53,546 bases of DNA from Myxococcota bacterium (GTDB lineage Bacteria > Myxococcota > B64-G9). The notes under the pieces were generated by a model. That model made no database searches, was not told the DNA's origin, and was given only the letters and a program-made list of their open reading frames with translations. The position numbers and the translations under genes were made by a program. Position 1 is the first letter of the stretch, and the number at the start of each line of letters is the position of its first letter. Location of the stretch: assembly GCA_022710975.1 (NCBI GenBank), contig JAKLGA010000009.1, forward strand, positions 1 to 53,546, given 5' to 3'. Below, in pieces: positions 18,979 to 39,494 of this stretch.

Positions 18979-21254
18979 AGCCGCCGCAGCCAGGCCAGGC
19001 CCACGAACAGCAGCAGGGCAGGGGAGCAGCCGCCCGCGGAGGCGCAGCCCCCGCAACCGGAGCCGTGGAGCGAGGCCGTCCCGTGGTCGTCTTGGACCCC
19101 GGAGTCCGGCCCGTCGGGATCCCCGGCGCCGTCCGATCCGTCGGATCCGTCCGATCCGTCGGATCCGTCCGACCCGTCGGCGCCGTCCGTCCCACCGTCC
19201 GATCCGTCCTGCGCCACCTCCCCCAGCGGCACCTCCACCGGGACCTCCGCCCGCCAGTCGATGCCCGAGGCCGCCAGGTAGGGCGGGTCGCTCGCCACGG
19301 GCGCGGCGGACACCAGCACCACGCTGCGGAAGGGCGCGAGCGGGACGCTCCCGCCCACGGGCGTGCCATCGGGCAGCGTCCAGACGCCGGCCAGGACCGG
19401 GACCTCGGCCTGCGCCTCCGTGTCGTTGAACACCAGGAAGGCGTTGGCGCGCACGATCAGGCTCCCGTCGGCGCGGGCCCAGGGCGCGGCCTGGGTCCAG
19501 GCCGCCAGCGTGTCGAGGTCTGCCCCTCCCTCCGGGCGGATCACCCCGGCGCCCTCGGCCGAGGCGATCAGGGTGGTCGCGGTCATCAGGCCGTAGTCGA
19601 GGTCGGGCTGGTACTGCAGGGCCACGGGCGTGGGCGGGGTGTAGGGCGGCAGCCACCACTGGTTCAGGTTCTCGGGCCGCACCAGCCGGCGGCTCGGCGA
19701 GAGCGCGGCCAGGGTGTTGCCCTCGATGGTGTGGCCCTGGGAGTCGCCCGCGTCGCCCGACAGCCCCAGCCCGGCCACGCGGTCGTCCACCGCGTGGTTG
19801 CCGCGCACGCTGCAGGTGAAGTTGTTGGGCAGGAAGATGCCCTGGCCGTTGCTGCCGTAGATGCTGTTGTCCTCGATCACCGAGTCGTGGAAGTCCTCGA
19901 GGAACTCGGGCCAGATGCCGTTCCCCAGCGGCCACCAGGGGTGCGAGGTCTCGAGGTCGCCGAGCGTGTCCAGGATGATGTTCTCGCGGATGATCGAGGC
20001 GTTGCAGTTGGTGTACACGGCCGCCCCGTCGTTCAACGTGCCCATGGTGCGCACGAACACGTTGCGCTCGACCGTCTGGCCGTCGCTGCCCAGGATGATG
20101 CCCGCGTAGCCCGTGTCCACCACCCGGTTCAGGCGGAAGGTGGCCGCGTTCGTCTGGCCCAGGATGACGCCCGCCGCGTGCCAGGAGCCGCTGCCCCCGT
20201 AGCCGCGCTCGTGGCCGATGCGCAGGAAGAGGTTGCGCTCGATGAGAGAGCCGGCCGGCCCGGCGGCGTCGGCCCAGCCCTGGATGGCGACGTTGCGCAC
20301 GTCGCGGAAGATCGAGCGCCGGATGGTGAAGGGCTGGCTGCTCCAGCCGTAGCCCACGGCGTTCGTCTCGATCTCGGCGAAAGTGCAGGCCTCGACCGTG
20401 GCCGGACCGTCGAGCTGCAGGGCCGGACCGGCGTAGCGCTGGAGCTGCAGGTGGCTGAGGCTCGTGCCGCGGGTGGTGAGCCCCGGCTCGTCGCGGGTGA
20501 GCACCTCGACCCGCATGCCCGCGGGGTCGGCCCAGGCGGGCGGGTAGAGGTACAGCGTGCCCGCCTCCCAGAACCACTCGCCGGGGGCGTCCAGCTCGTC
20601 GAGGTCGCCGTCGAGGAAGTAGCCCGAGCCCGGGTCGCTGAAGGGGTCCTGGAAGCGGCCCTCCGGGCCCAGCTCGAGGGTGTCCACCGCGGAGTGGCTG
20701 GTGACGGGCCGCGTCTCCCACCACCAGCTCCAGCGGCGCCAGCGCACCTGGGCTCCGGTCCAGCGGCCGGCCGCCACGCCCGGGCGCGCGCTCAGCTCGG
20801 CGTCCACGATGCGGTCCGGATCGTCGTCGTTGTCCACCCGCAGGAAGCCCTGGTTCGGCCAGCGCGCGAGCGGCACGAAGCGGCCGTCCACGTAGCAGGC
20901 CAGCACCGGCCCGGCCACCGCGGCCGTGCGCACGCGCTCGTCCGCGGCCCAGACGCCGGTGAGCGCCACCGGCTCGCTCGCGGTCAGCAGCGGATCGGCG
21001 CCCTGCCCGTAGGCGTCCAGCGCCAGGCCGCTGCCGAGGTCCAGGCCGCTGGCCGGGTAGGTCCCGCCGCGCTGGAGCAGGATGCGATCGCCCGCGCCCG
21101 CGCGGGTGAGGGCGTGGGCCAGGGAGGCGAGCGGCGCGGCCTCGCTCCCCGCGGCCCCGTCCACGCCGCCCGGGGCCACGTGCCAGTCGGCGGCGGTCGC
21201 GGCGGCGGGCAGGCACACGAGCCACGCGGCCATGCGGGTGATCGCGGTCCTCAT
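18966..21254 (-). CDS. Right-handed parallel beta-helix repeat surface protein with MYXO-CTERM-type sorting tail
   Basis: Signal peptide MRTAITRMAAWLVCLPAAATAA; many NxxxxN/GxxxxN turns typical of pectate-lyase fold (IIRENIILD, VIEDNSIYG, SVRGNHAVD); C-terminus (DGS)n linker then GSGCGGCASAGGCSPALLLFVGLAWLRRLYSV (Cys motif + TM + basic) = MYXO-CTERM pattern. Confidence 0.8.
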   Translation of the reverse strand: MRTAITRMAAWLVCLPAAATAADWHVAPGGVDGAAGSEAAPLASLAHALTRAGAGDRILLQRGGTYPASGLDLGSGLALDAYGQGADPLLTASEPVALTGVWAADERVRTAAVAGPVLACYVDGRFVPLARWPNQGFLRVDNDDDPDRIVDAELSARPGVAAGRWTGAQVRWRRWSWWWETRPVTSHSAVDTLELGPEGRFQDPFSDPGSGYFLDGDLDELDAPGEWFWEAGTLYLYPPAWADPAGMRVEVLTRDEPGLTTRGTSLSHLQLQRYAGPALQLDGPATVEACTFAEIETNAVGYGWSSQPFTIRRSIFRDVRNVAIQGWADAAGPAGSLIERNLFLRIGHERGYGGSGSWHAAGVILGQTNAATFRLNRVVDTGYAGIILGSDGQTVERNVFVRTMGTLNDGAAVYTNCNASIIRENIILDTLGDLETSHPWWPLGNGIWPEFLEDFHDSVIEDNSIYGSNGQGIFLPNNFTCSVRGNHAVDDRVAGLGLSGDAGDSQGHTIEGNTLAALSPSRRLVRPENLNQWWLPPYTPPTPVALQYQPDLDYGLMTATTLIASAEGAGVIRPEGGADLDTLAAWTQAAPWARADGSLIVRANAFLVFNDTEAQAEVPVLAGVWTLPDGTPVGGSVPLAPFRSVVLVSAAPVASDPPYLAASGIDWRAEVPVEVPLGEVAQDGSDGGTDGADGSDGSDGSDGSDGSDGAGDPDGPDSGVQDDHGTASLHGSGCGGCASAGGCSPALLLFVGLAWLRRLYSV
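19124..19210. repeat. Short tandem GATCCGTCN/GACGGATCN microsatellite-like repeat encoding (DGS)n linker
   Basis: gtccgatccgtcggatccgtccgatccgtcggatccgtccgacccgtcgg... inside beta-helix gene C-terminal linker. Confidence 0.7.
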
Positions 21255-21658
21255 GTCCCCAGCTTCTTCTGCACCCCGCGGGCGATCTCCTCGACGGTCA
21301 GGAGCTGGGCCAGGTGGCGGCGGGTGAGGCCGGGCTTCAGGAAGTCGCGGGCGTGGGGAAAGTGCTCCCGGAGCGCGACCAGGGCCCGCTCGGTGAGCAC
21401 CTCGTCCTTGTGGATCTCCTCCTCGGGGATGCCGAGCTGGGCCGAGAGGCTCATGTCCTCGCGGGAGAGCCGCAGGCCGAACTCCTGCTCCAGGAGGTAC
21501 ATCAGCTCGACCAGATCCAGGCTCTCGGCTCCGAGATCGTCCATCAGCCGGCTCTCGGGCCTGACCTCGGCGACCTGCAGGGCCAGCACCTCGGCCACGC
21601 GCTTGCGCACGCGCTCGAGGGTGTCGGTGGGGATGGGGACGGGCGTGGGGACGGGCAT
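21251..21658 (-). CDS. Acyl-carrier-protein-like protein with C-terminal extension
   Basis: Phosphopantetheine-attachment-like motif LGAESLDLVELMYLLEQEFG; 135 aa (ACP core ~80 aa + ~50 aa tail); stop overlaps start of beta-helix gene (ATGA at 21251-21254). Confidence 0.6.
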   Translation of the reverse strand: MPVPTPVPIPTDTLERVRKRVAEVLALQVAEVRPESRLMDDLGAESLDLVELMYLLEQEFGLRLSREDMSLSAQLGIPEEEIHKDEVLTERALVALREHFPHARDFLKPGLTRRHLAQLLTVEEIARGVQKKLGT

Positions 21659-21780: not shown

Positions 21781-22983
21781 ATGAACACCCTGCTGTCCCT
21801 GGCTCTCCTGGCCCTGGCCGCGGCCCCGCCTGCGGCCGCGCTCGACGCGCTCGACTTCGACAACGGCGCCATCCTGCTCTCGGAGACCGGCAGCTACGGC
21901 GACGGGGTGGGCTCCTGGAGCGCCTGGCGCCTGACCGACGGCGACGAGGCCATGGGCTGGTGCTCGCCCGCGGAGGAGATCACCGGGGGGACGTTCGTGT
22001 GGGAGCTGGACACCACCTGGCGGCTCGACACCTTCGTGCTCTCGACCGCGAACGTCCAGGAGGACGGCTACCCGGGCATCTCGGCCAGGTCGGTCGATCT
22101 GTTCGTGTCCCCGGACGGCGCGGCCTGGCAGAAGCTGGGCGGCTTCGAGATCGCCAGGCTCACCCGCAAGGCCTTCCCCCTGCCCAAGGGGACCCAGGCC
22201 AGGCAGGTGAAGCTGGTGGTCACCGGGAACCACGGCCACAAGGAGTACACCGAGATCGCCGAGCTCGATCTCCTGGGCGCGCGCGTCGGGGCGGTGGCGA
22301 CGGCCCAGCTCGGCGGCGACTTCGCCACCAACTACGGCCCGATGCGCTTCGTGCAGGACGGCGAGGCGCTGTTCGGCTGCTACGACTGGGCCGCGGTCAC
22401 CTCCGCGGTGTGGGGCTCGGTGAGCGGGCGCATCGCGCGGGTGGTGTGGTTCGAGGCGAGCGAGGGCTCGACCCGCGAGGGCACGGCCACCTTCGCGGTC
22501 AAGGGCAGCGGCGAGCTGTGGGGCATCTGGTACGAGGGAGGTGAGCTCAAGGGCATCTGGGAGGGCCCGCGCGCGCCCAAGGACGAGGGCCCGACCTGCA
22601 CCCCGAGGAGGGAGGGCCAGCTCGGGGCGATGCTCAAGAAGAAGGGGCGCGCGGTTCTCTACGGCATCCACTTCGCGGTGAACGCGGACGTGCCGCTGCC
22701 CGAGTCGGAGCCCACCCTGGTGGAGCTCGCCGGCGCGCTCAAGGCCGACCCCGCGGTCAAGGTGCTCATCGAGGGGCACACGGACTCGACCAACACCGAC
22801 GCCTACAACCTGGGGCTGTCCGCGCGCCGGGCGAAGAGCGTGATGGGCTGGCTCACCAAGCACGGGGTGGAGCCGAAGCGACTGCAGGCCAAGGGCTTCG
22901 GCAAGGCCCGCCCGGTGGCCGACAACGCCACCGCCCAGGGCCGGGCGCTCAACCGCCGCGTCGAGGTGTCGGTGGTCAAGTAG
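21781..22983 (+). CDS. OmpA-family protein with N-terminal discoidin (F5/8 type C)-like domain
   Basis: Signal peptide MNTLLSLALLALAAAPPAAA; discoidin-like pattern (W.S....TDG.......GT.VWELD.......FVLSTAN.......SARSVDLFVS.DG..W); C-terminal OmpA motif HTDSTNTDAYNLGLSARRA...NRRVEV. Confidence 0.8.
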   Translation: MNTLLSLALLALAAAPPAAALDALDFDNGAILLSETGSYGDGVGSWSAWRLTDGDEAMGWCSPAEEITGGTFVWELDTTWRLDTFVLSTANVQEDGYPGISARSVDLFVSPDGAAWQKLGGFEIARLTRKAFPLPKGTQARQVKLVVTGNHGHKEYTEIAELDLLGARVGAVATAQLGGDFATNYGPMRFVQDGEALFGCYDWAAVTSAVWGSVSGRIARVVWFEASEGSTREGTATFAVKGSGELWGIWYEGGELKGIWEGPRAPKDEGPTCTPRREGQLGAMLKKKGRAVLYGIHFAVNADVPLPESEPTLVELAGALKADPAVKVLIEGHTDSTNTDAYNLGLSARRAKSVMGWLTKHGVEPKRLQAKGFGKARPVADNATAQGRALNRRVEVSVVK

Positions 22984-23004
22984 GCCGCGCCGGGTCCCCC
23001 GCGT

Positions 23005-23595
23005 TCAGCGAGGCAGCGACCGCAGGGCCTTCCTCGCGCCAGCCAGGCCGAGCTCGAAGGCCGGGACCTGCATCGCGTGTGCCCGCGGTTGCCCCGTGTC
23101 CTCCTCCCCCGCCAGCGCGTCCGGTTCGGGCTCCACCTCGTCCGGGGCCTTGCCCTCACGCAGGAAGGCCAGGAGCAGCCGGACCGCGCGCGACCTCGAC
23201 CCCGCGAGCTCTCGGGTGCTGCGCGCCTCGAAGGCCTTGATCCAGACCATCTCGGCCGTGGCCGGGTCCACCAGGCTCAGGTTCCACTGCACGTGGGCCG
23301 GCATGCACATGATCTCCGAGGACAGCAGCCAGCGAGCCTTGGCCTGCTCGTCCTGGACCTGGCGCACGGCCTTCAGCTCGGCCAGCCCGGCGAGCGTCTC
23401 GCGGCCGAGCCGCGCGCCCAATTCGGGCTGGTGGCCGGGGCAGCTCGGCGAGCGCGTCCAGGCCGTGGGGCACGGGCCGAGGCCCACGGTGGGCGGCTCG
23501 CCCGCGGCGGCCTGGCCTCCGCCCGCGATTGACGCGAAGCACACCCCCGCCAGCGCGACCGCCCTCAGCGCCCGGGAGAGATTCGTCGGCATCAT
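23005..23595 (-). CDS. Secreted hypothetical protein
   Basis: Signal peptide MMPTNLSRALRAVALAGVCFASIAGGGQAAAG; 196 aa; no recognisable domain. Confidence 0.5.
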   Translation of the reverse strand: MMPTNLSRALRAVALAGVCFASIAGGGQAAAGEPPTVGLGPCPTAWTRSPSCPGHQPELGARLGRETLAGLAELKAVRQVQDEQAKARWLLSSEIMCMPAHVQWNLSLVDPATAEMVWIKAFEARSTRELAGSRSRAVRLLLAFLREGKAPDEVEPEPDALAGEEDTGQPRAHAMQVPAFELGLAGARKALRSLPR

Positions 23596-23637: not shown

Positions 23638-24390
23638 TCACATCCCACCGGCGAAGCCACCGTCCGCGTCCAGCACCGCGCCGTGCACGTAGGCGGCCTC
23701 GTCCGAGGCCAGCCAGCACACCAGGGCCGCGATCTCGTCGGCGCTGGCGAAGCGCCGGAGCGGCACGCGCGCGCGCAGCTCCTCGCCCGCCAGCGCCCGC
23801 AGCGGCGCGGTCATGCCCGTCTCCACGATGCCCGGGGCCACCGCGTTCACCCGGATGCCCTTACGGCCCACCTCGACCGCCAGGGCGCGGGTGAAGGCCT
23901 CGGCGAAGCCCTTCGTGCCGGCGTACACCGCCCCGCCCCGGCTGGGCTTCCTGGCGAGCGTCGAGCTCAGGTTGACGATGCAGCCCGCGCGCGCCTTGAG
24001 CATGGGCTCGAGGGCCGCCCGGGCGAGCCACACCTGGCCCAGCACGTTGGTCTCCACCACCCGGCGGATCTCCTCGTCTGGCTGGGAGAGCAGCAGGTTC
24101 TCGGCCGCCACCCCGGCGTTGTTCACCAGCGTGTCCAGCCGCCCGTAGGCCTCGAGTGCCCGCGCCACCAGGAGCCCGGCCGTGGCCGGATCGGCCACGT
24201 CGCCGCGCACCACCTCGCAGGCGGCCCCGTCCGCGCGGCAGCCCTCGGCCACCTGCCGCATGGCCCCCTCGTCCGCGCGGTGGTTGAGCACCAGGCGCGC
24301 GCCCGCCCGGGCGAAGCGGCGCGCCACGGCCGCCCCGATGCCGCGCGAGGCCCCGCTCACCAGGATCACCCGTCCGCCCGTCATCACCAT
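23638..24390 (-). CDS. SDR-family oxidoreductase (FabG-like 3-oxoacyl-ACP reductase type)
   Basis: GASRGIG Rossmann motif, NNAG, catalytic YAGTK (YxxxK), PG motif; ~250 aa. Confidence 0.85.
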   Translation of the reverse strand: MVMTGGRVILVSGASRGIGAAVARRFARAGARLVLNHRADEGAMRQVAEGCRADGAACEVVRGDVADPATAGLLVARALEAYGRLDTLVNNAGVAAENLLLSQPDEEIRRVVETNVLGQVWLARAALEPMLKARAGCIVNLSSTLARKPSRGGAVYAGTKGFAEAFTRALAVEVGRKGIRVNAVAPGIVETGMTAPLRALAGEELRARVPLRRFASADEIAALVCWLASDEAAYVHGAVLDADGGFAGGM

Positions 24391-24515
24391 GCCCTGCCGC
24401 CTCCCGGGGAGTGTGTCCTCCTTGTACCCGCACCTGCAGGCGCCAGGCAAGCGCTGGCCCCGCGACCGGGGGCGTGGCATGCTGCCGCAGGGGGGTGAGC
24501 CATGGGAGGTGGTCC

Positions 24516-24887
24516 GTGCGGAGCACGTGGAGCGCCTGCGTGGGGCTGGTGATCCTCCTGCTGGCCGGCTGCGAGCGGCCGCCAGCCGAGCCGGCGCCGG
24601 CCGATGCCCAGGCCGTGGCCGCGCAGCGCGAACGCGAGGTGCGCCAGTGGTGGAAGGCTTGCCGGGCCGGCGGGCAGACGGACTGCGCCCGGCTCGAGGC
24701 GCTGCTCGCCAGCGACTCGGGTTTCAAGGCGCGCGTGGGCACCGACGCGGGGATCCTCGCCCAGGTGTGCCGGCTCGGGGATCCGGATCGCTGCCTGGAC
24801 CTCGGGCTCAAGCTCTTCTTCGGGGTGGGCGTGCCGCGGGATCCGGCCGCGGCCGACGCGGCCATGGCCAAGGCCCGGCTGGAGTGA
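24516..24887 (+). CDS. Possible small lipoprotein with Sel1-like repeat (GTG start)
   Basis: (V)RSTWSACVGLVILLLAGC lipobox-like leader; C-terminal LGLKLFFGVGVPRDPAAADAAMAKA resembles Sel1/TPR-like motif; on opposite strand inside the minus-strand lipid gene string, so weak. Confidence 0.3.
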   Translation: MRSTWSACVGLVILLLAGCERPPAEPAPADAQAVAAQREREVRQWWKACRAGGQTDCARLEALLASDSGFKARVGTDAGILAQVCRLGDPDRCLDLGLKLFFGVGVPRDPAAADAAMAKARLE

Positions 24888-24968: not shown

Positions 24969-26267
24969 TCAGGCCGGGCTCCGGCTCACCACCAGGGCGG
25001 CGTTCTGGCCGCCGAAGCCGAACGAGTTGGACAGGCAGGTGCGCACCCGGGCCGAGCGCGGCGCGAGCGGCACGTGGCACAGGGCGCACTCGGGATCCGG
25101 ATCGGTCAGGTTCAGGGTGGCGGGCAGGAGCTGCGCCTCCAGGGCCCACAGCACGGCCACCAGCTCGACCGCGCCGGCCGCGCCGATCAGGTGGCCGAGC
25201 TGGCTCTTGGTCGAGGACACCGGCACCCGCGGGGCGGCCTGCCCCAGCACCTGGCGGATGGCGGCCGCCTCGGACGGATCGTTCTTGCGGGTGCCCGTGC
25301 CGTGGGCGTTGATGTAGTCGAGCTCGCCGGGCGCGATCCCGGCGCGCTCCAGCGCCAGCCGCATGGCGCGGGCGGCCTGGGCCTGGTCCGGGGCCGGGTC
25401 GGACACGCGGAAGGCGTCCAGCGTCGAGGCGTAGCCCCGCAGCTCGGCCAGGATGGGCGCCCCGCGGCGCCGGGCGGCCTCGCGCTCCTCCAGCACCAGC
25501 GCGGCCGCGCCCTCGCCCAGCACGAACCCGTCCCGGGCGCGGTCGAAGGGCCGCGAGGCGGCCGGGCCGAGCTCGTTCGAGCGCGACAGCGCCTCCAGCA
25601 TGCAGAAGCCGCCCACGCCCAGCGGGTTGACCATCGAGTCGTAGCCGCCGGTCAGCGCGCAGTCCAGGAGCCCGTCCTGCACGGCCAGGAAGGCCTCGCC
25701 GATGGCCTGGCTGCCGGCGGCGCAGGCCGACAGGTTGACCGCGAACAGGCCCTGGCCGCCCAGCTCCGCGGCCAGGCAGCGGGCGCCGAGATCGGCCGGG
25801 ATCTGCACCAGCGAGCGCTCGCGCTGGGCGCGCACGGCCTCGGCCAGGAGGGCGTAGTCGAGCCGCCCGGCGCGCACCTGCTCGGCCAGGTCCCCCAGGT
25901 TGAAGATCTCCAGGCCGGCGGCCAGGACCAGGCCCACCCGCCGCGGGGCGTGGTGCGCGCTCGCCCGGCTGCCGGGGAACGCCTGCGCCAGGGCCTCGCG
26001 TCCGGCCAGCAGCCCGAAGAGCGATTTGGGATCCCGGAGCAGCGCCGCGCGCTGGTCCGCCGGCAGGTCGAGCTCCGCGCGCGGCAGCGGCGGGACCTGG
26101 CCGGCGATGCGCGTCGGGAAGGTGGCCGCGTCGAAGCTGCGGATGGGCCCGATCCCGGAGCGCCCCTCGCGCAGGCCGGCGAAGAACTCCTGCCTGCCCA
26201 CGCCGATGGGCGAGACCACCCCGCAGCCGGTGACGACCACCCGGCGGCGCGCGCTCGACGAACTCAC
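24969..26267 (-). CDS. Beta-ketoacyl-ACP synthase (KAS II / FabF-like)
   Basis: GTG start with GGAGGTG RBS; RRVVVTGCGVVSPIG, active-site Cys in NLSACAAGSQAIG, His motifs INAHGTGT and GHLIGAAG; 432 aa. Confidence 0.9.
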   Translation of the reverse strand: MSSSSARRRVVVTGCGVVSPIGVGRQEFFAGLREGRSGIGPIRSFDAATFPTRIAGQVPPLPRAELDLPADQRAALLRDPKSLFGLLAGREALAQAFPGSRASAHHAPRRVGLVLAAGLEIFNLGDLAEQVRAGRLDYALLAEAVRAQRERSLVQIPADLGARCLAAELGGQGLFAVNLSACAAGSQAIGEAFLAVQDGLLDCALTGGYDSMVNPLGVGGFCMLEALSRSNELGPAASRPFDRARDGFVLGEGAAALVLEEREAARRRGAPILAELRGYASTLDAFRVSDPAPDQAQAARAMRLALERAGIAPGELDYINAHGTGTRKNDPSEAAAIRQVLGQAAPRVPVSSTKSQLGHLIGAAGAVELVAVLWALEAQLLPATLNLTDPDPECALCHVPLAPRSARVRTCLSNSFGFGGQNAALVVSRSPA

Positions 26268-27475
26268 GCGCCCACCTCCGGGGCGGCCAGCAGGGCCGCG
26301 GACAGGCCCCCGTCCGGGCCGACGGCCGTGACCAGCACCCGGTCGGGGGTAGGCGGCGAGGGGGGGCCGGCCTGCGGACCGTCGCCGGGCAGGGGCGCAC
26401 CCGCGGCCAGGCACAGGCTGGCCACGGCCAGGGCGGCGGGGAAGGCGGCCGGCTCGGAGAAGCCCAGCAGCCCGTCCAGGCTCAGGAGTGCGGGCGGCCG
26501 GGCGGGCCACAGCCGCGCGCACAGCGACACCAGGGCCGCGTCCCCGGCCGCGTCCGGGCTGCCCGTCACCAGCAGGACCGGGGGCGGCGGTCCCCCGCTC
26601 GCGTCCCGCAGGACCTCCGCGAGCAGGTCCGTCGCGCCCGCCGCCTGCCGGGGGCCCCAGGCGACGCTGACGCGCTCGAGCGCGGCCAGGGGGCGCGCCC
26701 CGCGCGCCCGGGCGGCCGGCTCCTGCTCGAGCACCAGCGCCGCGCCCTGATCGGCCGGGGCCAGGCCGCGGTGGCCGGGCGCGAAGGGCCGGGCGGCCTC
26801 GGCCGTGGTGGGCACCTGGTCCGCCCGCAGCGCGGTGCACAGGGGCAGCAGCGACAGCGCCTGGCCGCTGCCGCCGACCAGGGCGCAGCCGGCGCGGCCA
26901 CGGCGGAGGCCGCGCAGGGCGGCCTCCAGCGCGGCGCCGGCCTGGCCGGCGCCCGGGTACAGGATGGCGTTCTCGCCCCGCAGGCCGAGGGCGATGCTGG
27001 CGAGCCCGAGCGGCATGTTGAGCAGCATCTTGAAGGGCATGAGCGGGTTGCAGCGGCGGATGCCCTCGGCGCCCATGTAGGCGTAGTCCGGCCGTCCGTC
27101 CGCCGTCAGGCCCGCGGCCATGGTCGGGTAGACCGCGGCGAGGTCGAAGGCGATCAGCCCGGTGGCCAGGTAGAGCGAGGTGTCCTCGGGCGGGGAGGAG
27201 AGCGCCGCGGCGGCCAGCGCCCGCGCGCAGACCACCACGGCCAGCTCGGCGGTGGGGCTCATGTACTTCTGCAGCTTGCGATCCGCCAGGAACCCGGACG
27301 TGGGCGGGGGCGGGCAGGGGGCCCCGGGCAGCGCGGGGAAGCCCGGCGCCCCGGCCAGCTCGAAGGCGCGGAGCGCGCGCCGGCCCGCCTGCAGCGCCGC
27401 GAGGCTCTCGGGCCCGTCGCCGAAGGCGGTGTGCAACCCGGCGCCGGTGACGAGGGTGCGCCCAGGTGCGCTCAC
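26264..27475 (-). CDS. Beta-ketoacyl synthase-like protein lacking the Cys-His-His triad (chain-length-factor / KS-beta-like)
   Basis: KS-fold length and N-terminus (RTLVTGAGLHTAFG) but active-site positions read ATGLIA / GGSGQ instead of xACxxG / HGTGT; stop overlaps KAS start (4 nt) and start overlaps dehydratase stop. Confidence 0.7.
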   Translation of the reverse strand: MSAPGRTLVTGAGLHTAFGDGPESLAALQAGRRALRAFELAGAPGFPALPGAPCPPPPTSGFLADRKLQKYMSPTAELAVVVCARALAAAALSSPPEDTSLYLATGLIAFDLAAVYPTMAAGLTADGRPDYAYMGAEGIRRCNPLMPFKMLLNMPLGLASIALGLRGENAILYPGAGQAGAALEAALRGLRRGRAGCALVGGSGQALSLLPLCTALRADQVPTTAEAARPFAPGHRGLAPADQGAALVLEQEPAARARGARPLAALERVSVAWGPRQAAGATDLLAEVLRDASGGPPPPVLLVTGSPDAAGDAALVSLCARLWPARPPALLSLDGLLGFSEPAAFPAALAVASLCLAAGAPLPGDGPQAGPPSPPTPDRVLVTAVGPDGGLSAALLAAPEVGA

Positions 27476-27984
27476 TCGATGAACCTCGCCTCGCGGGTGA
27501 GGATCTCCAGGTAGCCCTCGCGGGCCTCCTGCAGGCGCTTGTCCTCGATCTTGAGGAACACGTACAGGATCTCGGCCTGGGCCACCCGGCGCTCGCCGCG
27601 CCTGGTGAGCACCTTGACCAGGGCCGAGTCCTCGTGGGCCGAGACGATCTCCGCCCGCAGGCGTAGCAGGTCGCCTGGCTTCACGAAGTCGCGGAACTTG
27701 GCCTTGACCGAGCTCAGCACGCAGCGCGGGCTGTAGCCGAGCTCGCCCTTCAGCGACAGCTCGAGCAGCGCCCCGCCGAGCTGGGCCATGCTCTCGATGA
27801 GCAGCGCGCCGGGGTAGACCGGTTGACCGGGGAAGTGGTGCTCGAAGCAGTCCTCGCTCAGCGCCACGGCCTTGAGGCCCTCGGCGTACTCCCCCCGCTT
27901 GACCTCCTCGATGCGATCGAGCAGCACGTAGCGCACGTCGTCACCCTCCCTCGCGCGGGCCGTCTTCCCCGTCGTCCCCGGCAT
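27472..27984 (-). CDS. FabZ/FabA-like 3-hydroxyacyl-ACP dehydratase (hotdog fold)
   Basis: EHHFPGQPVYPGALLIESMAQ motif (FabZ HxxxG..P..PG.L..E); ~165 aa; start may be ATG 27984 or GTG 27933 (track start overlaps nitroreductase 3' end by 44 nt). Confidence 0.8.
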   Translation of the reverse strand: MPGTTGKTARAREGDDVRYVLLDRIEEVKRGEYAEGLKAVALSEDCFEHHFPGQPVYPGALLIESMAQLGGALLELSLKGELGYSPRCVLSSVKAKFRDFVKPGDLLRLRAEIVSAHEDSALVKVLTRRGERRVAQAEILYVFLKIEDKRLQEAREGYLEILTREARFIE

Positions 27985-28621
27985 CCAGGACGCGCAGCAG
28001 CCGCTCGGCGGCCCGGCGCGGGGGCGCCGCGGGCGCCTCGGCCGGGTAGCCCACGGGCACCAGCGCGGCCACCTCCCAGCTGTCTTGAAGACCGAGCAGA
28101 CGGCCGAGCGCCGGCGCGGCCACCAGCGGGCCGGTCATCCAGCAGGCCCCCAGCCCGAGCGCGTGGGCGGCCAGGAGCAGGTTCTCGACGGCGGCCGCCA
28201 CCGAGGCCAGCGAGTCCTCGGCCTGGCGGCCGGCCGGGCTGCCCGCGGGCCGGGCCCGGCGCTGTTGGCTGGCGGCCAGGAGATCGGGCCCCGGGCGGTG
28301 GGCGAAGGCCAGCACCAGCGGGGCCTGGTCGAAGAAGCAGAAGGCGTCCAGGTAGCGGTTGGCGTCCTCCGCGGCCTCGGGCCGGAGCCCGGCCCGGAAG
28401 GGGGCCAGCGCCTCGTCCACCGCGGCCCGCAGGGCGGCCCGCCGCCCGGGCGCGCTCACCGCGAGGAGCCGCCAGGCCTGGCGGTTTCCGGCCGAGGGCG
28501 CCCAGCGCGCCGCCTCGGCCAGCTTCGAGACCAGCTCCGCCGGCACCGGCTCGGGCCGGAAGCGCCGGATCGAGCGCCGCCCGCGCAGGAGCTCGAGCAG
28601 CCGGGCGTAGCTCTCGGACAT
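27941..28621 (-). CDS. Nitroreductase-family flavoprotein
   Basis: RRSIRRFRPEPVPAELVSKLAEAARWAPSAGNRQAWRLL is the nitroreductase N-terminal signature; 226 aa; first gene of the minus-strand arm, GGGGAGG RBS. Confidence 0.8.
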   Translation of the reverse strand: MSESYARLLELLRGRRSIRRFRPEPVPAELVSKLAEAARWAPSAGNRQAWRLLAVSAPGRRAALRAAVDEALAPFRAGLRPEAAEDANRYLDAFCFFDQAPLVLAFAHRPGPDLLAASQQRRARPAGSPAGRQAEDSLASVAAAVENLLLAAHALGLGACWMTGPLVAAPALGRLLGLQDSWEVAALVPVGYPAEAPAAPPRRAAERLLRVLDAGDDGEDGPREGG

Positions 28622-28695
28622 GGCGCCTCCCCGCGGCGTGGTTGCCGACCGCCGCGGCGTGTGGGATCATCCCCGGCCTGCGAGGAGGAGTCAAC

Positions 28696-29445
28696 GTGGC
28701 CGAAGACGGAACGCTCCGGGGCATGCGGGTGCTGGTGACCGGCGGGACGGGCTCCATCGGCCGGGCCATGTGCCGGGCCTTCGCCCGGGAGGGGGCGGAT
28801 CTCGCCTTCACCTGGAACCGGCGCGAGGCGGAGGCCGGGGCGCTGGCGGCCGAGCTCCAGGGCCGGGGCGTGCGCGCGCTGCACGGCCGGGTGGGCGCCA
28901 CCGACGGGCCGGCCATCCAGGCCTTCTGCGAGCGGGTGGAGACGGAGCTCGGCGCGCTGGACGCGCTGGTGAACAACCTCGGCGGCACCCAGGTGCTGCC
29001 CTTCGCGCTGATCGACGAGCCCGACTGGGACGAGACCCTGGCGCTCAACCTCAAGTCGATGTTCCTGTTCTCCAAGGCGGTGGTGCGGGGCATGATCCGC
29101 CGCAAGGCGGGGGTGATCCTCAACCTGGGCTCCCTGGCCGGCCGGCGCATGCTGGAGGTGCCGGTGCACTACGCCACCGCCAAGGCCGGGGTGACCGGGT
29201 TCACCATCTCGCTGGCCAAGGAGCTGGCCCGCTACGGCATCCGCGTGCTGGAGCTGACGCCGGGGCTCATCCAGGGCGGCATCGGCGACAACGTCAGCGA
29301 GCGCCAGCTCGCCGAGTACAACCGCTACTGCGCCCTCGGCCGACCGGGCACGGCCGAGGAGGTGGCCGAGCTGGCCGCCTTCCTGATCTCCCCGCGCGCC
29401 GGCTACATGAACGCGGTCAGCGTCCAGCTCGACGGGGGGCTGTGA
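28696..29445 (+). CDS. SDR-family 3-oxoacyl-ACP reductase-like (FabG-like)
   Basis: GTG start after GGAGGAG RBS; TGGTGSIGRAM, NNLG, YATAKAG (YxxxK); 249 aa; first gene of plus-strand arm, divergent from nitroreductase. Confidence 0.85.
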   Translation: MAEDGTLRGMRVLVTGGTGSIGRAMCRAFAREGADLAFTWNRREAEAGALAAELQGRGVRALHGRVGATDGPAIQAFCERVETELGALDALVNNLGGTQVLPFALIDEPDWDETLALNLKSMFLFSKAVVRGMIRRKAGVILNLGSLAGRRMLEVPVHYATAKAGVTGFTISLAKELARYGIRVLELTPGLIQGGIGDNVSERQLAEYNRYCALGRPGTAEEVAELAAFLISPRAGYMNAVSVQLDGGL

Positions 29446-29448
29446 GGA

Positions 29449-30915
29449 ATGCCCGTGGCGCCCGGTGAGCTGCCCATCTACCTGGGCCTGTCCCAGGGCC
29501 TGTGCCGCGAGTGCCGGCGCGTGGTGCCGGCCCGCTACCTGGCCGACGCGCAGGGGGTGTGGCTGGAGCGGCTGTGCCCCGAGCACGGCCCGGCCCGGGC
29601 CCGGGTGGCCGAGAGCCTGGCCTGGTTCCAGGACGCGCTGCGGGCCCCCATGGCCCCGCGCCCGCCGGCGCAGGCCCGGCCGCGCAGCGCCGGCTGCCCG
29701 GAGAGCTGCGGGCCGTGCAGCTTCCACGCCCAGGCCTGCCACCTGCCGGTCTTCTCCATCACCAACGCCTGCGATCTGCGCTGCCCGATCTGCTTCACCT
29801 ACAACCGCGCCGACCGCCTGTACTTCATGCCGCCCGAGGAGTTCCAGCGCCAGATCGAGTTCGTGGTCCGGGCCACCGGCGGGACGCACCTGGTCAACGT
29901 GACCGGCGGCGAGCCGTTCATGCATCCGCGGCTCTTCGAGCTCCTGGCGCTCGCGCGGCGGCCCGAGATCGGACGCGTCACGGTGAACACCAACGGGCTG
30001 GCCATCGCCGCCGACCCGTCTCTGGCCCGGCGCCTGGCCGGGGTGGGCGCCTACGCCATCCTGTCGCTCGACACGCTCGACCGGGAGCGCAGCCTGCGGC
30101 TGCACGGGCGGGACATCGTGGACGAGAAGCGCCGCGCGCTCGACGCGCTCGAGGCGGCGGGCGTGCCCACGACGCTGCTGATGGTGCTGGCCGGCGGGAT
30201 CAACGAGGCCGACCTGGCCCCCGTCCTCGAGCTGGCCATGCGCCGCGAGCACGTGCGCTCCTTGACCATCCAGTGCATGACCTACACCGGCCAGGGCGGC
30301 GGCGCCTTCCTGCCGCGCCGGCACCTGCCGGTGGAGAGCGTCGAGCGCATGCTGGCCGAGGCCAGCGGCGGTTGGCTGCGCCCGGGCGACTTCATGCCGC
30401 TGCCCTCGGCCCACCCGCTGTGCTACGGGGTGAGCTACCTGGTGTGCGAGCCCCGGGCCGGGCTGCACCCCTTCGCCCGGCTGCTCAGCCGCGAGGTGCT
30501 GGCGCGTAGCCTGGTGGGAGGGTACCTGCTCGAGCCGACCGCGGAGCTCGAGACCTCGCTGCGGGACGCCATCGACCGGCTGTGGTCCGAGGGGGCCGAG
30601 CCCGGCCTCTTGCGGGCGCTGAAGAGCATGCTGACCACCATCTACCCGACCGGGCAGTCGCTGGGCGTGGCCGAGCGCCAGCGCCGGGCCGAGTCCACGG
30701 TCAAGACGCTGTACGTGCACGCGCACATGGACGAGGACACCTGGGAGGTGGGCCGGGCCATGCGCTGTCCGGACCAGGTGCCGGTGGACGCCGAGCGGCT
30801 GATCGGCGCCTGCAACTACAACCTGTTCTACCGCATGCGGGATGAGCGCTTCTGGGTGGAGCCCGGCTGCGCCGGCCGCGAGGCCGGGGGTTGCGGGCAG
30901 GAGCCAGCGCCATGA
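29449..30915 (+). CDS. Radical SAM enzyme with N-terminal rubredoxin-like Cys3His module and second Cys cluster, paralog 1
   Basis: N-term CRECRR...WLERLCPEHG (CxxC / CPxHG knuckles), then GCPESCGPCSFHAQAC, then rSAM core CDLRCPICF (CxxxCxxC) and GGEPF; C-terminal RAMRC...ACNYN; 488 aa. Confidence 0.85.
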   Translation: MPVAPGELPIYLGLSQGLCRECRRVVPARYLADAQGVWLERLCPEHGPARARVAESLAWFQDALRAPMAPRPPAQARPRSAGCPESCGPCSFHAQACHLPVFSITNACDLRCPICFTYNRADRLYFMPPEEFQRQIEFVVRATGGTHLVNVTGGEPFMHPRLFELLALARRPEIGRVTVNTNGLAIAADPSLARRLAGVGAYAILSLDTLDRERSLRLHGRDIVDEKRRALDALEAAGVPTTLLMVLAGGINEADLAPVLELAMRREHVRSLTIQCMTYTGQGGGAFLPRRHLPVESVERMLAEASGGWLRPGDFMPLPSAHPLCYGVSYLVCEPRAGLHPFARLLSREVLARSLVGGYLLEPTAELETSLRDAIDRLWSEGAEPGLLRALKSMLTTIYPTGQSLGVAERQRRAESTVKTLYVHAHMDEDTWEVGRAMRCPDQVPVDAERLIGACNYNLFYRMRDERFWVEPGCAGREAGGCGQEPAP

Positions 30916-32327
30916 GCGCCCGGCCGCTCCCCCCGCCGGTGGAGACCTTCGCCGCCACCCGGGCGCTGTGCAACCTGTGCGGCCGGTTGACCGACGCGCG
31001 CATCGCCTTCCAGGGCGAGGAGGTCTGGCTGGAGAAGCACTGCCTGGAGCACGGCCCGAGCCGCACGCTCGTCTCCACCGACCGGGCTGGCTACCTGCTG
31101 TCGCTCGGCTTCGTGAAGCCCGGCCAGGATCCGCGCGCGCGAGCCGTACGGGACTACCGGGGCTGCCCGGGCTCGTGCGGGCTGTGCCCGGCCCACCAGC
31201 AGCACACCTGCGTGCCCATCCTCGAGCTCACCGGGCGCTGCGACCTCGACTGCCCCGTGTGTCTGGTGCACGGCCAGGCCCAGCCCGAGCTCGGCCTGGA
31301 GGACGTGCGCCGGGTGGTGGCGGCGCTGCTCGGCTACGAGGGGCGGCTGCACATGCTGAACCTCTCGGGCGGCGAGCCCACCGCCCACCCCCGCTTCCTG
31401 GAGATCGTCGAGGAGCTCGCGGCCCGGCCGGAGATCGGCGTGCTCAGCGTGTCCACCAACGGCCTGCGGCTGGGCGAGGACGAGCGCCTGGCCCGGCGGC
31501 TGGCGGAGCTCAAGGTGGTGGTCTCGCTGCAGGTGGACGGGCTGGCCGGGGAGGGCGACCTCGCGCTGCGCGGGCGGCCGGGGCTGGCCGCGCTGAAGCG
31601 CCGGGCGCTGGAGCGGGTGCTCGCGGCCGGAGGGCGGCTGTCCCTGGTCTACACCCTGGAGCGCGGAGTGAACGAGGCCGGGCTCGCCGAGGTGCTCGCG
31701 CTGCTCTTCTCGAACGACGCCATCCTGAGCCTGATGGTCCAGCCCCTGGCCCACGCCCGGCGCGCCCCGGCGGGCGATCTGCGCGAGGTGCGCGCTGGCC
31801 TGACCACCCCCGAGGTGGTGGGGCTGCTGGTGGCCGCCTCCGGCGGGGTGCTCGAGCCGCGGGACCTCACCCCGCTGCCCTGCTCGCACCCGGCCTGTTT
31901 CTCCCTCACCTACCTGCTGCGCGCCCGGGGCGGCAAGCTGGTGTCGCTGCCCAGGCTGGTGGACGCGGACACCTACCTGGACGCCATCAAGAACCAGGCC
32001 CTGCTGCGCACCGACCCCGAGGGGCTGCAGGCCGTCAAGGACGCGCTCTACAAGCTGTGGTCGTCGAGCGGGGTGATACCGGACCGGGAGGACGTGCTGG
32101 CGACGGTCAAGCAGCTCCTGCTCGATCTCCAGCGGGTGGATCCGCGCGGCCCGCTGCGGGACGGCCTGGAGCTCGGGCTGACGAACGTGAAGTCGATCTT
32201 CATCCACAGCTTCATGGACCGCTACACCTTCGACCTGTCGCGGGCCATGAAGTGCTGCAACCACTACCCGCAGGCTGATGGCCGGATGCTGCCGGCCTGC
32301 ATGCGCAACGTCGGGCTGGCCCGCTGA
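30912..32327 (+). CDS. Radical SAM enzyme with N-terminal rubredoxin-like Cys3His module, paralog 2
   Basis: CNLCGR...WLEKHCLEHG, GCPGSCGLCPAHQQHTC, rSAM CDLDCPVC, GGEPT, C-terminal RAMKCC...ACMRN; AGGAG RBS 8 nt before ATG 30912, which overlaps paralog-1 stop (ATGA). Confidence 0.85.
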   Translation: MSARPLPPPVETFAATRALCNLCGRLTDARIAFQGEEVWLEKHCLEHGPSRTLVSTDRAGYLLSLGFVKPGQDPRARAVRDYRGCPGSCGLCPAHQQHTCVPILELTGRCDLDCPVCLVHGQAQPELGLEDVRRVVAALLGYEGRLHMLNLSGGEPTAHPRFLEIVEELAARPEIGVLSVSTNGLRLGEDERLARRLAELKVVVSLQVDGLAGEGDLALRGRPGLAALKRRALERVLAAGGRLSLVYTLERGVNEAGLAEVLALLFSNDAILSLMVQPLAHARRAPAGDLREVRAGLTTPEVVGLLVAASGGVLEPRDLTPLPCSHPACFSLTYLLRARGGKLVSLPRLVDADTYLDAIKNQALLRTDPEGLQAVKDALYKLWSSSGVIPDREDVLATVKQLLLDLQRVDPRGPLRDGLELGLTNVKSIFIHSFMDRYTFDLSRAMKCCNHYPQADGRMLPACMRNVGLAR

Positions 32328-32361: not shown

Positions 32362-33414
32362 ATGGACGTCGATCTGTTCGGGCTGGAGATGAGCTGGGCG
32401 GACTTCGCCCAGGCGCTGGGGCTGGGCTTCCTGGCCTGGTTCTTCGTGCGCCACGTGCTGCTCGGGTTCATCGTGGTCGACCAGAACGAGCGCGCGGTGA
32501 AGACGAGCTTCGGGCGGGCCCTGCGCCTGGGGCAGACCACCACGCTGGCGCTGCCCATCGCCGAGGTCCTGAGCCCGGACCAGCGCAAGCGCTACTCGTT
32601 TCCCCAGGTGCGGGTCATGGGCCCGGGCTGGTACTTCAAGTGGCCCTGGCAGCGGGTGCACAAGGTGAGCATCGCCACCCGCACGGTGAACATGGCCTGG
32701 GATCCGGAGACCCCGTCCGCCAACCACAACGGCACCATGCTGGAGGCGGTCACCAAGGACCAGCTCAACACCGGGCTCACGGGCGACATCCGCTGGCGGG
32801 TGAGCGAGCAGAACCTGTACGCCTACCTGTTCGGGGTCAAGCGGCCCATCGCCCACGTCATGGGCTACTTCGTGTCCGTGCTGCGCGAGCGCATCGCCAA
32901 CTTCGAGGCCCCCAAGACCGCGGCCGCCCCGGCCGCCCAGGCGGGTCCGGGCGCGCTGCCTGGCTTGCCCATGGACGCCTCCATGGTGCAGGGGGTGAGC
33001 ATCAACGATCTGCGCAAGAACCTGCGCGACATCAACGACCACATGGACCGCGAGTGCCGCTCGTCCGAGGCGCGCTACGGCATCCTGCTGGACGCCTCGC
33101 TGATCACCGGCATCGATCCGCCGCCCGAGGTGGAGTCGGCCCTGGCGGCCATCAACACCGCCCACAACCAGGTGTCCTCCGACATCAGCCTGGCCCAGGC
33201 CGGGGCCGACCAGAAGATCGTCCAGTCCCGCCGGGCGGTGGAGATCGAGACCATGCGGGCCCAGGCCGAGGTGTCGCCGCTGACCGCCCAGGCCGAGCAG
33301 CTCGCGGCGCTGAAGGCGGCCGGGGGCAAGGAGGCGCTGGCCGCGTACCGGCGCTTCGTGCGCCTGGAGCTCTTCAAGCAAGCCGGCCAGGTGGTGCAGG
33401 AGGTGCGGTCATGA
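32362..33414 (+). CDS. SPFH/band-7 (stomatin/flotillin/HflK-like) membrane protein 1
   Basis: N-terminal TM LGLGFLAWFFVRHVLLGFIVV followed by VDQNERAVKTSFGR (SPFH start motif), long C-terminal coiled-coil-like Ala/Gln-rich region; GGGGGGAGG RBS. Confidence 0.8.
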   Translation: MDVDLFGLEMSWADFAQALGLGFLAWFFVRHVLLGFIVVDQNERAVKTSFGRALRLGQTTTLALPIAEVLSPDQRKRYSFPQVRVMGPGWYFKWPWQRVHKVSIATRTVNMAWDPETPSANHNGTMLEAVTKDQLNTGLTGDIRWRVSEQNLYAYLFGVKRPIAHVMGYFVSVLRERIANFEAPKTAAAPAAQAGPGALPGLPMDASMVQGVSINDLRKNLRDINDHMDRECRSSEARYGILLDASLITGIDPPPEVESALAAINTAHNQVSSDISLAQAGADQKIVQSRRAVEIETMRAQAEVSPLTAQAEQLAALKAAGGKEALAAYRRFVRLELFKQAGQVVQEVRS

Positions 33415-34376
33415 GCGAGAACGGCTGGCTGCTCACCGGGATCGCCTTCGGCGGCTTCTTCCTGGCCGTGCCCATCTTCCTGGGGTTCCTGCGCTTCCTC
33501 GGCTTCTACGCCGTGGTCCAGGAGCGCACCTGCCAGGTGTACGTGCTGTTCGGCAAGGTGGTCACGGTGATCGAGGAGCCCGGGCTCCACTTCCTGTGGC
33601 TCAAGATGGGCCTGAAGGCCCCGGTGGTGCGCTGGATCGGCAAGCTGTACGTGGTGGACATGCGGCTCGACCAGACCTACATGCGCTCCCAGCCGGTCAA
33701 CTCCGAGGAGGGCGCCCCCATGGGCATCGGCATCTGGTACGAGATGTACATCTCGGACCCGCTGGCCTTCCTGTTCAAGAACACCGACCCGCGCGGGTCG
33801 CTCCGGGCCAACGTGTCCAACGCCACGGTGCGCTGCCTGTCGAACATGAAGCTCGGCGAGATGCTCCAGACCCGGCACCTCATGTCCGAGACGGTGCGCA
33901 ACGAGGTCTCGCCCAAGAGCCACGAGTGGGGCTACCGGCTGGGCTCGGTGTACATCCGCAAGGTGCACTTCCGCGACGCGGGCATGATCGCGCAGATCGA
34001 GGAGAAGGTGGTGAACCGCCTGCGCCAGGTCACCTCGGCCATCCGGCAGGAGGGCCAGAACCAGGTCAGCCTCATCTCCAGCGCGGCCGAGCGCGAGGCG
34101 GCCGTGGACTTCGCCAAGGCCGCGGCGCTCCGGCCGGAGATCGTGGGCGCGGCGCTCCGGCGCATCGGCCAGGATGCGGAGGTGAGCGAGGCGCTGTTCG
34201 AGGTGCTGGAGAACCAGGCGCTGGTGGCGAGCGGCGCCCGGCTCACCCTGGTGCCACCCGGCCAGGCGGTGTTGCCGGCGCTCCTGGCGGCCCGCGCCGC
34301 GCCGGCGTCCGGCCCGGCGCCCGCGGGCCGTCCCGTCCCGGCCCCGGGTAGGTTCCCCGTGCCCACCCAGCCGTGA
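33411..34376 (+). CDS. SPFH/band-7 membrane protein 2
   Basis: TM LLTGIAFGGFFLAVPIFLGFL, SPFH motif VVQERTCQVYVLFGKVVTVIEEPGLHF; start overlaps paralog-1 stop (ATGA). Confidence 0.8.
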   Translation: MSENGWLLTGIAFGGFFLAVPIFLGFLRFLGFYAVVQERTCQVYVLFGKVVTVIEEPGLHFLWLKMGLKAPVVRWIGKLYVVDMRLDQTYMRSQPVNSEEGAPMGIGIWYEMYISDPLAFLFKNTDPRGSLRANVSNATVRCLSNMKLGEMLQTRHLMSETVRNEVSPKSHEWGYRLGSVYIRKVHFRDAGMIAQIEEKVVNRLRQVTSAIRQEGQNQVSLISSAAEREAAVDFAKAAALRPEIVGAALRRIGQDAEVSEALFEVLENQALVASGARLTLVPPGQAVLPALLAARAAPASGPAPAGRPVPAPGRFPVPTQP

Positions 34377-34473
34377 CCCGCCGATCGAGCTGCGGCCCGG
34401 GCTCCACTCAGGGTTGACTACGGAGTCGAACGGGTTCAGATTTTCTTAAGAAGTGAGGAGATAGGCTTCGGGG

Positions 34474-36884: not shown

Positions 36885-36912
36885 CGGGGCCCCCACGGAA
36901 AGGAGCTGACCG

Positions 36913-37134
36913 ATGGCCGAGATCAAGATGGACACCAAGGGAATGCGTTGCCCGCAGCCCGTGCTCAAGGTCGCCGCGCGCGCGCCGGAGCTGAAGGCCG
37001 GCGACCTGCTGGAGGTGATCGGCGACTGCCACACCTTCGAGGACGACATCCGCAAGTGGTGCCAGCGCATGGGCAAGACCCTGCTGGCGGTGAACCGGGA
37101 CGGCGCGGTGGTGACCGTGCGCATCCAGTTCTGA
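36913..37134 (+). CDS. TusA-family sulfurtransferase-like protein
   Basis: 73 aa with CPxP motif DTKGMRCPQPVLK at the canonical position. Confidence 0.8.
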   Translation: MAEIKMDTKGMRCPQPVLKVAARAPELKAGDLLEVIGDCHTFEDDIRKWCQRMGKTLLAVNRDGAVVTVRIQF

Positions 37135-38396: not shown

Positions 38397-38426
38397 GGCT
38401 GAGGCGGGGGCGGAGGGCGGATCGCA

Positions 38427-39489: not shown

Positions 39490-39494
39490 ACCCG

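Follow-up and report, generated by a model that had tools for sequence, protein, structure and literature searches.

What kind of acyl-chain system is encoded by the four genes at positions 24969–28621 of contig JAKLGA010000009.1, from the Myxococcota assembly GCA_022710975.1? These genes, on the minus strand of a 53,546-nucleotide stretch of DNA that was analysed as a whole and that we call the window, encode a nitroreductase-family flavoprotein (NR), a hotdog dehydratase (DH), a dead ketosynthase (dKS) and an active ketosynthase (KS). An initial annotation had likened them to a minimal type II polyketide synthase (PKS) or aryl polyene (APE) system, in which a KS works with a chain-length factor (CLF). 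We found that the four genes make up half of a conserved cassette, hitherto undescribed, that uncultured Myxococcota and Acidobacteriota carry. The other half comprises a FabG-like reductase (SDR-B) and a pair of radical S-adenosylmethionine (SAM) enzymes of the Tes/GDGT-MAS family (rSAM1 and rSAM2). The cassette belongs with the KS/CLF-type discrete acyl-chain systems, and its set of partners is both unusual and conserved; full-text searches of the literature found no description of a cluster that combines KS/CLF, nitroreductase and radical SAM genes. The four genes are probably the chain-building half of a cassette of at least nine members, which would join a private acyl assembly line to the Tes-like pair.

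The evidence for the cassette comes from its recurrence. Related loci were fetched through relatives of dKS and of rSAM2 and were searched with the window proteins by tblastn. The series NR-DH-dKS-KS-[SDR-A]-ACP-SDR-B-rSAM1-rSAM2, where ACP is an acyl carrier protein and SDR-A a FabG-like ketoreductase, was found either colinear or divergent in L003–L007, L010, L015 and L016. SDR-A is facultative, with orthologues between KS and ACP in L004, L007, L010 and L016. SDR-B is directly followed by rSAM1 and rSAM2 in every close locus, and its orthologues are 59–67% identical throughout. The loci derive from metagenome-assembled genomes (MAGs) of Myxococcota, Polyangia, Anaeromyxobacter and Acidobacteriota. 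Because the arrangement recurs in more than 15 independent metagenomic loci, it is far beyond chance. The radical SAM pair and SDR-B are invariant partners that the initial annotation had overlooked, and they define the kind of system to which the four genes belong.

A remote subtype (L032, L053, L068, L069 and L077) contains the same nine families at 30–45% identity to the window proteins, in the order DH, short dKS, KS, SDR-A, NR, ACP, SDR-B, rSAM1, rSAM2. NR has moved between SDR-A and ACP, and dKS is reduced to ~195 aa, the N-terminal half of the fold. The gene set is intact after this rearrangement, which is therefore strong evidence for one pathway. The cassette can also be longer. In L016, one colinear operon of 13 genes carries the full series, SDR-A included, followed by rSAM3, a rhodanese-domain protein, an alpha/beta-hydrolase and rSAM4. 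These four extra genes, which encode two radical SAM proteins of ~346 aa, a rhodanese-domain protein of 430–445 aa and a hydrolase of 319–340 aa, are found in most loci (L003, L005–L008, L010 and L014–L016; for example L016:11024–15456). Scanning metagenome contigs with the rSAM3 family gave 80 further loci, the longer of which include the remote subtype; the contig of the window is not among them. A scan of species genomes with a single peptide pattern, which underestimates the distribution, gave 6 loci among 185,579 genomes.

Because the window has a G+C content of ~73%, the mechanical list of its open reading frames (ORFs) is crowded with spurious frames. Genes were called by third-position GC and then compared with the public gene calls for contig JGI Ga0116154_10000048. 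Third-position GC and Pfam place the four genes head to tail: NR (27941–28621, 226 aa, Pfam PF00881), the first gene of the operon; DH (27472–27984, 170 aa as called, Pfam FabA at 67 bits), a FabZ/FabA-like protein; the CLF-like partner dKS (26264–27475, 403 aa), in which only the N-terminal KS domain scores (39 bits); and the FabF-like KS (24969–26267, 432 aa), with both Pfam KS domains. The junction sequences show a start/stop overlap, GTGA, at DH/dKS and again at dKS/KS, and with either candidate start codon of DH the four genes are tightly packed; the four-gene unit proposed earlier holds. The minus-strand series continues in the 5' to 3' direction with SDR-A (23638–24450, 270 aa, motifs SGASRGIG and S...YAGTK, Pfam adh_short_C2 at 195.8 bits), a 196-aa secreted protein, a 135-aa ACP and a 762-aa secreted beta-helix protein, and is broken by two plus-strand genes, for a small lipoprotein (24540–24887) and an OmpA-domain protein (21781–22983).

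The second half of the cassette, at 28723–32327, lies on the plus strand and is divergent from NR: SDR-B (28723–29445, 240 aa, with a possible GTG start at 28696; Pfam adh_short at 158.7 bits), rSAM1 (29449–30915, 488 aa) and rSAM2 (30912–32327, 471 aa), whose start overlaps the rSAM1 stop. The intergenic region between NR and SDR-B (28622–28722) holds a sigma-70-like sequence, TTGACT-17-GATGAT (28694–28666, minus strand), the sole one in 11.6 kb where 0.1 would be expected; this is a consensus match only. The two SDRs and the FabZ-like DH agree with the earlier remark that the neighbouring genes look like fatty acid synthase (FAS) components. Also as noted earlier, no acyltransferase or thioesterase was found in Pfam and gene-call scans of the whole window; the same scans found no phosphopantetheinyl transferase.

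The two KS-like proteins differ in their catalytic residues. In an end-to-end alignment with FabF structures, KS has Cys182 (in SACAAGS), His322 (NAHGTGT), and Lys354 and His359 (STKSQLGHL). At these columns dKS has Ala176, Gly305, Asp334 and Phe339, so that the loss of Cys, His and His, first read by eye, is evident in the multiple alignment. Across 21 members of the dKS family, the Cys column holds Ala, Pro or Gly, the first His column is almost invariably Gly, the Lys column is invariant Asp and the second His column varies among His, Tyr, Val, Gly and Phe. dKS is an intact gene rather than a decaying one, with a third-position GC of 0.97, 39 columns invariant over the 21 sequences and an AlphaFold model (pLDDT 87.4) that shows a complete thiolase fold, with TM-scores of 0.80–0.84 to FabF and 0.80 to the actinorhodin CLF. 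The recognition of KS/CLF logic, an active KS translationally coupled to a catalytically dead paralogue, was thus well founded.

What dKS conserves lies elsewhere in the fold. The family has an invariant motif, PLxPFKxLLNMPLG...YPGxxQ, and an invariant Gln178 two residues downstream of the Cys column. The segment PFKxLxNMPLG...SI..GL.G.N is kept in every subtype, including the 195-aa mini version, and aligns to sPFfvpgsiiNMvsGflSihlGlqGpN of FabF; from general knowledge of KS structures, we take it to be a dimer-interface and acyl-pocket helix. One sequence, P0029 (834 aa), is a dKS-KS fusion, with a C-terminal half 62% identical to the window KS. A profile search of 1.84 billion representative proteins gave ~60–70 clusters above 250 bits for the dKS family, followed by a tail of diverse FabF-like proteins that matched no curated family. 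Existing names did not fit dKS and its remote relatives: NCBIfam gave only sub-threshold FabF-like matches, the best being PRK06519 at 56 bits, and the weak matches to AmcE, AmcF and AmcB of cispentacin biosynthesis were all far under their cut-offs.

The initial annotation had stated that the unit has no cognate ACP, and had offered the 135-aa ACP gene at 21251–21658 (minus strand; PP-binding at 39.9 bits) as a candidate carrier. The first statement does not hold and the second does, by orthology and by conserved gene order. An ACP of 128–144 aa directly follows KS in L003, L005, L006 and L015, and follows KS-SDR-A in L004, L007, L010 and L016; these eight are all the related loci in which the region is covered. 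Their ACPs are 55–69% identical to the window ACP over ~90% of its length. The family is long for an ACP: its 194 matches all have 125–153 aa, and a conserved extra helical segment of ~50–60 residues has no counterpart in ordinary ACPs. In the structure model (pLDDT 87.5), helices I–II and the last helix match ACP structures, with the extra helices in between. The phosphopantetheine serine is present, at Ser46 in GAESLD in the window and in GADSLD in relatives.

The window keeps the order and strand of KS, SDR-A and ACP, with three genes inserted among them. The 115-aa lipoprotein gene at 24540–24887 (plus strand; JGI call), with a lipoprotein signal (VILLLAGC, lipobox LLAGC), sits in the 518-bp gap between KS and SDR-A in a frame backed by third-position GC. 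It has no Pfam match, is not present in the orthologous loci and looks like an insertion that breaks the operon. Between SDR-A and ACP, at 21781–23595, lie the OmpA-domain protein, which also has an F5/8 type C domain (21781–22983, plus strand), and the 196-aa secreted protein (23005–23595, minus strand), which is of no known family; neither is found in the related cassettes. The ACP stop overlaps, as ATGA, the start of the gene for the secreted right-handed beta-helix protein (18966–21254, minus strand; 762 aa). This partner is not conserved in the other loci, and L003 has an unrelated 377-aa protein in its place.

rSAM1 and rSAM2 each combine Zn_ribbon_HMPTM and Radical_SAM domains. The two share ~31% identity, and orthologues of each are 55–70% identical. 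Their only strong solved relative is GDGT-MAS/Tes (7tol, MJ0619), with E-values of 3.6e-32 for rSAM1 and 2.6e-41 for rSAM2. Tes carries a rubredoxin-like Fe site (three Cys and one His), an N-terminal [4Fe-4S] cluster, the radical SAM cluster, and a C-terminal [4Fe-4S] cluster (three Cys and one Met) that bears the C-S intermediate (PMC13459092, section 2.1). Over eight orthologues of each protein, the invariant motifs are CxxC...CPEH, CPx3CGxCxxH, CxxxCxxC and three C-terminal Cys, the second of which has a Met two residues ahead of it; in the HMMER alignment, the match to 7tol extends over the C-terminal motif M-(R/K)-C-C...P-x-C. The motifs of all four Tes metal sites are thus kept in both proteins, which are full-length homologues. 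They are not Tes equivalogs, scoring 154.9 and 178.9 bits with NCBIfam Tes (NF045702) against a cut-off of 450, and unlike Tes they are always found together, as two paralogues. With the TrsS model they reach slightly more bits (184.5 and 218.3), still under its cut-off of 490, and the literature has TrsS only as a selenoprotein family of unknown function; we did not adopt the name.

The annotated ATG of DH overlaps NR by 44 nt. An alternative GTG at 27936 lies 5 nt past the NR stop, behind GGGAGGG, and gives a product that matches the lengths of homologues; DH is thus probably a 154-aa protein that starts there. It has the motifs HHFPGQP (His) and LIESMAQ (Glu). A precomputed Pfam match to an ApeI-like family exists for DH; by BLASTP it matches E. 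coli ApeI at E=0.037 and ApeP at E=0.52, and FabZ HMMs score better. NR is a member of the nitroreductase superfamily (PF00881 at 130.6 bits, gathering cut-off 23.5) and not a BluB equivalog (88.5 bits against 150 with NCBIfam BluB). Among solved structures, the best matches to NR are 9exv, 4dn2, albonoursin synthase (8uc3) and FbiB (4xom). Counting NR as part of the unit was right: orthologues occur in 10 of the 12 close loci and in the remote subtype, and NR travels with the KS/ACP half of the cassette, not with the radical SAM half.

Together, these proteins suggest the following pathway. KS and dKS would form a heterodimer, as in KS/CLF pairs, in which dKS would have no catalytic part and would supply the segment for the dimer interface and acyl pocket; we infer this from the GTGA coupling, the P0029 fusion and the conserved interface segment. 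Elongation of a malonyl-derived chain on the long ACP would be the work of this pair, a FabG-like SDR and the FabZ-like DH; malonyl loading and phosphopantetheinylation may be borrowed from housekeeping FabD and AcpS. NR would act at the alpha,beta position of the thioester, either as the missing enoyl reductase or, in reverse, as a desaturase. There is precedent for such chemistry in the nitroreductase fold, since FbiB reduces, and albonoursin synthase creates, a C=C bond next to a carbonyl; we favour enoyl reduction, with desaturation as the alternative, because the cassette is without a canonical enoyl reductase. Afterwards or concurrently, the Tes-like pair may activate unactivated carbons of the ACP-borne chain and form C-C bonds that close rings or join chains tail to tail; as in Tes, the route would run through a cluster-sulfur intermediate. 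The alpha/beta-hydrolase of most relatives is the likely release enzyme, and rSAM3, rSAM4 and the rhodanese protein would complete the pathway there. Our best guess for the product is an acyl chain that receives radical C-C (or C-S) chemistry while bound to ACP and becomes a modified lipid or fatty acid.

Several observations weigh against this proposal. Archaeal Tes, as far as known, acts on complete isoprenoid membrane lipids and not on ACP-bound chains, whereas the pair described here sits in an ACP-based acyl-chain operon. We know of no enoyl-ACP reductase with a nitroreductase fold. The P0029 fusion may be a frameshift artefact at the GTGA overlap. The four extra genes of the longer cassettes were not found in the window, so its pathway may be incomplete or split. 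In L008, on a Polyangia MAG contig, DH-dKS occurs with no NR and with no KS in the following 2.7 kb, and L014 has NR and SDR-B-rSAM1-rSAM2 with no KS block within 10 kb; the halves of the cassette can therefore separate, at least in assemblies. Every catalytic assignment beyond the family level is a prediction from sequence.

If the cassette does build a chain for the Tes-like pair, could the product span the membrane? Tail-to-tail coupling of two chains would give a long alpha,omega-dicarboxylic lipid of the diabolic-acid or branched glycerol dialkyl glycerol tetraether (brGDGT) type. The chemistry of the Tes family, terminal C(sp3)-C(sp3) coupling (PMC13459092), fits such a product, a role in making brGDGTs has been proposed for bacterial Tes homologues (PMC8941075), and the cassette is present in Acidobacteriota and anaerobic Myxococcota. 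The SPFH/Band7 membrane-scaffold genes that follow rSAM2 in the window would also suit it. We nevertheless consider this special case of the pathway proposed above unlikely. The cassette is rare, as the six matches to one peptide pattern indicate; its dedicated ACP, up to four radical SAM enzymes, rhodanese protein and hydrolase look more like heavy tailoring on the carrier than like a single coupling; and the cluster contains no ether-lipid or glycerolipid genes. The only bacterial enzymes experimentally shown to perform such coupling are the Mss enzymes (PMC13459092, section 2.2).

The genes downstream of rSAM2 bear on a second possibility as well. At 32362–37134 (plus strand) lie genes for two SPFH/Band7 proteins, an MvhD/FlpD-like protein, a 651-aa HdrA-like flavoprotein with ferredoxin domains, and TusA. 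A link of these genes to a sulfur relay is conceivable, and relatives carry the rhodanese-domain protein on that side of the cassette. Rather than go beyond the C-S(cluster) stage, the Tes-like enzymes might act as sulfur donors in the manner of LipA and BioB; the product would then be a cofactor-like molecule or a fatty acid with a thiol or thioether group. When SAM is limiting, Tes gives an adduct of substrate and sulfur (PMC13459092, section 2.1), the rhodanese-domain protein is conserved in the extended cassette, TusA and the HdrA/FlpD-like pair lie 2–5 kb downstream of rSAM2, and the alpha/beta-hydrolase has a weak BioH-like match. Against this, the rhodanese gene is not in the window, TusA and the HdrA-like gene are not conserved in the other loci, and no Tes-family enzyme is known as a sulfur donor. 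The evidence is entirely contextual, and we regard sulfur insertion as improbable.

More improbable still is the reading with which the analysis of this locus began, in which a minimal KS/CLF system of the APE or type II PKS kind produces a polyene or an aromatic polyketide and the radical SAM genes are unrelated neighbours. The resemblance ends with the pairing of KS and a dead KS: dKS has no sequence relation to ApeC or to CLFs and no Gln at the Cys position, APE accessory genes are lacking, and KS is nearest to FabF. In type II PKSs (actinorhodin, 1tqy; ishigamide Iga11/Iga12, 6kxd), an active KS is likewise co-translated with a nucleophile-less, full-length thiolase-fold paralogue, ACP, ketoreductase and dehydratase are discrete, and the acyltransferase is borrowed from primary metabolism. 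Actinorhodin-type CLFs have Gln at the Cys position and keep the His residues for malonyl-ACP decarboxylation. dKS, in contrast, has Ala at that column and is also without the His and Lys. Phmmer found no match between dKS and the actinorhodin CLF (1tqy_B) at E<=0.01. The CLF does appear among the structural matches of dKS, at rank 12 in the fold search, with a match no better than that to FabF. Neither search singles out CLFs, and we rejected membership of dKS among them. KS scored 292 bits with FabF (1e5m) against 230 with the actinorhodin KS-alpha (1tqy_A) and 205 with the ishigamide KS Iga11, and so lies closer to FabF than to KS-alpha, an affiliation judged from scores and structure matches. 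No PKS cyclases were found in the window or in related loci, and type II PKSs differ from the present cassette in that NR and the Tes-like enzymes are obligatory partners here.

The comparison with APE systems, for which all proteins were searched by BLASTP against the E. coli CFT073 cluster ApeA–R, led to the same result. An APE cluster is also a FAS-like type II system, with a KS and a non-catalytic CLF, FabZ-like dehydratases, a FabG-like ketoreductase and dedicated ACPs, and the dKS of the remote subtype, at ~195 aa, approaches the 240 aa of ApeC. The missing canonical enoyl reductase and the ApeI-like Pfam match of DH point in the same direction. dKS, however, has no BLAST similarity to ApeC, KS is 39% identical to ApeR over half its length and 32% identical to ApeO, and the E-values of DH with the Ape dehydratases are 0.037 or higher; APE membership was rejected. 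The accessory genes of APE clusters (acyl-ACP/CoA ligase, thioesterase, LPLAT, GT2, LolA/MMPL and methyltransferase) were found neither in the window nor among the called genes of L003–L005 and L014–L016, and no homologues of the ApeH, K, D, J, L, M or B type were found in the window or related loci. APE ACPs have 83–85 aa, compared with 135 aa and an insert here. The synteny of the rSAM pair in essentially every locus, the rearranged subtype included, argues against unrelated neighbours.

That the genes are housekeeping or paralogous type II FAS genes (FabF, FabZ, FabG) beside a decayed FabF pseudo-paralogue has next to no probability: FabF, FabZ, FabG and AcpP are indeed the best family matches, but this is already contradicted by scores under the NCBIfam equivalog cut-offs for all components (KS with fabF, 391.8 against 493.75; DH with FabZ, 92 against 155; the SDRs with 3oxo_ACP_reduc, 209 and 181.7 against 297.75; ACP with acyl_carrier, 51.4 against 70.45), domain scans found no fabD, fabH, fabI or acc gene in the window, and dKS is intact, rare and tied to the cassette.

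For the favoured arrangement, a private assembly line coupled to radical SAM tailoring, the nearest analogue appears, in logic only, to be the candidate ladderane cluster of anammox bacteria. That cluster contains amxACP, amxFabZ, FabF/FabF2, a phytoene-desaturase-like enzyme and a B12 radical SAM enzyme, and its pathway is unproven (PMC13459092, section 5). Both would bring together a special ACP and FabZ, two FabF-type proteins, a flavoprotein redox enzyme and radical SAM chemistry on an ACP-bound chain. They differ in their components: the radical SAM enzyme is B12-dependent there and Tes-like with auxiliary clusters here, the flavoprotein is phytoene-desaturase-like there and has a nitroreductase fold here, and one of the two KSs is dead here. 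Domain scans of the cassette genes found no B12-binding or amine-oxidase/phytoene-desaturase domain. The hosts differ as well, being Myxococcota and Acidobacteriota rather than Brocadiia.

Three other features of the window lie apart from the cassette. At 16348–18006 (minus strand), an AcrB/AcrD/AcrF-family ORF of only ~512–552 aa, whose first-position GC is unusually high (0.87), matches just the first third of a profile of ~1020 positions; it might be an efflux gene that has been truncated or split. The two genes at 4732–11018 (minus strand) are very large (820 and 1237 aa), and the second has T9SS-associated galactose-binding-like domains; both have nearly equal first- and second-position GC and long open frames on the opposite strand. 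A module in the partner-switching style occupies 37154–40166 (plus strand), where a SpoIIE/PP2C phosphatase is encoded along with two STAS-domain proteins and two HATPase_c_2 anti-sigma-type kinases.

Hundreds of genomes encode bacterial Tes homologues, all of them functionally uncharacterised and none with a known substrate (PMC8941075, PMC11868695). Here a Tes-like pair is tied to a private ACP, a KS/dead-KS pair, a dehydratase, reductases and a flavoprotein, an association that holds over two rearranged subtypes and at least two phyla. The cassette may, we suggest tentatively, be the first genomic evidence on the substrate of a bacterial Tes-family clade, which would be an acyl chain built by the KS/dead-KS pair on a dedicated long ACP, with NR as enoyl reductase or desaturase. 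According to a 2026 review, ladderanes and jawsamycin are the only ketoacyl lipids believed to undergo modification by radical SAM enzymes (PMC13459092). If our reading is true, uncultured Myxococcota and Acidobacteriota would possess ketoacyl lipids of a new class, which radical SAM enzymes cross-link, cyclise or thiolate, and the cassette would be a possible source of orphan bacterial membrane-spanning or cyclic lipids. It could also test the nitroreductase fold as an enoyl-ACP reductase or desaturase and, as a compact expression target of 9–13 genes, could reveal the function of bacterial Tes-family enzymes.

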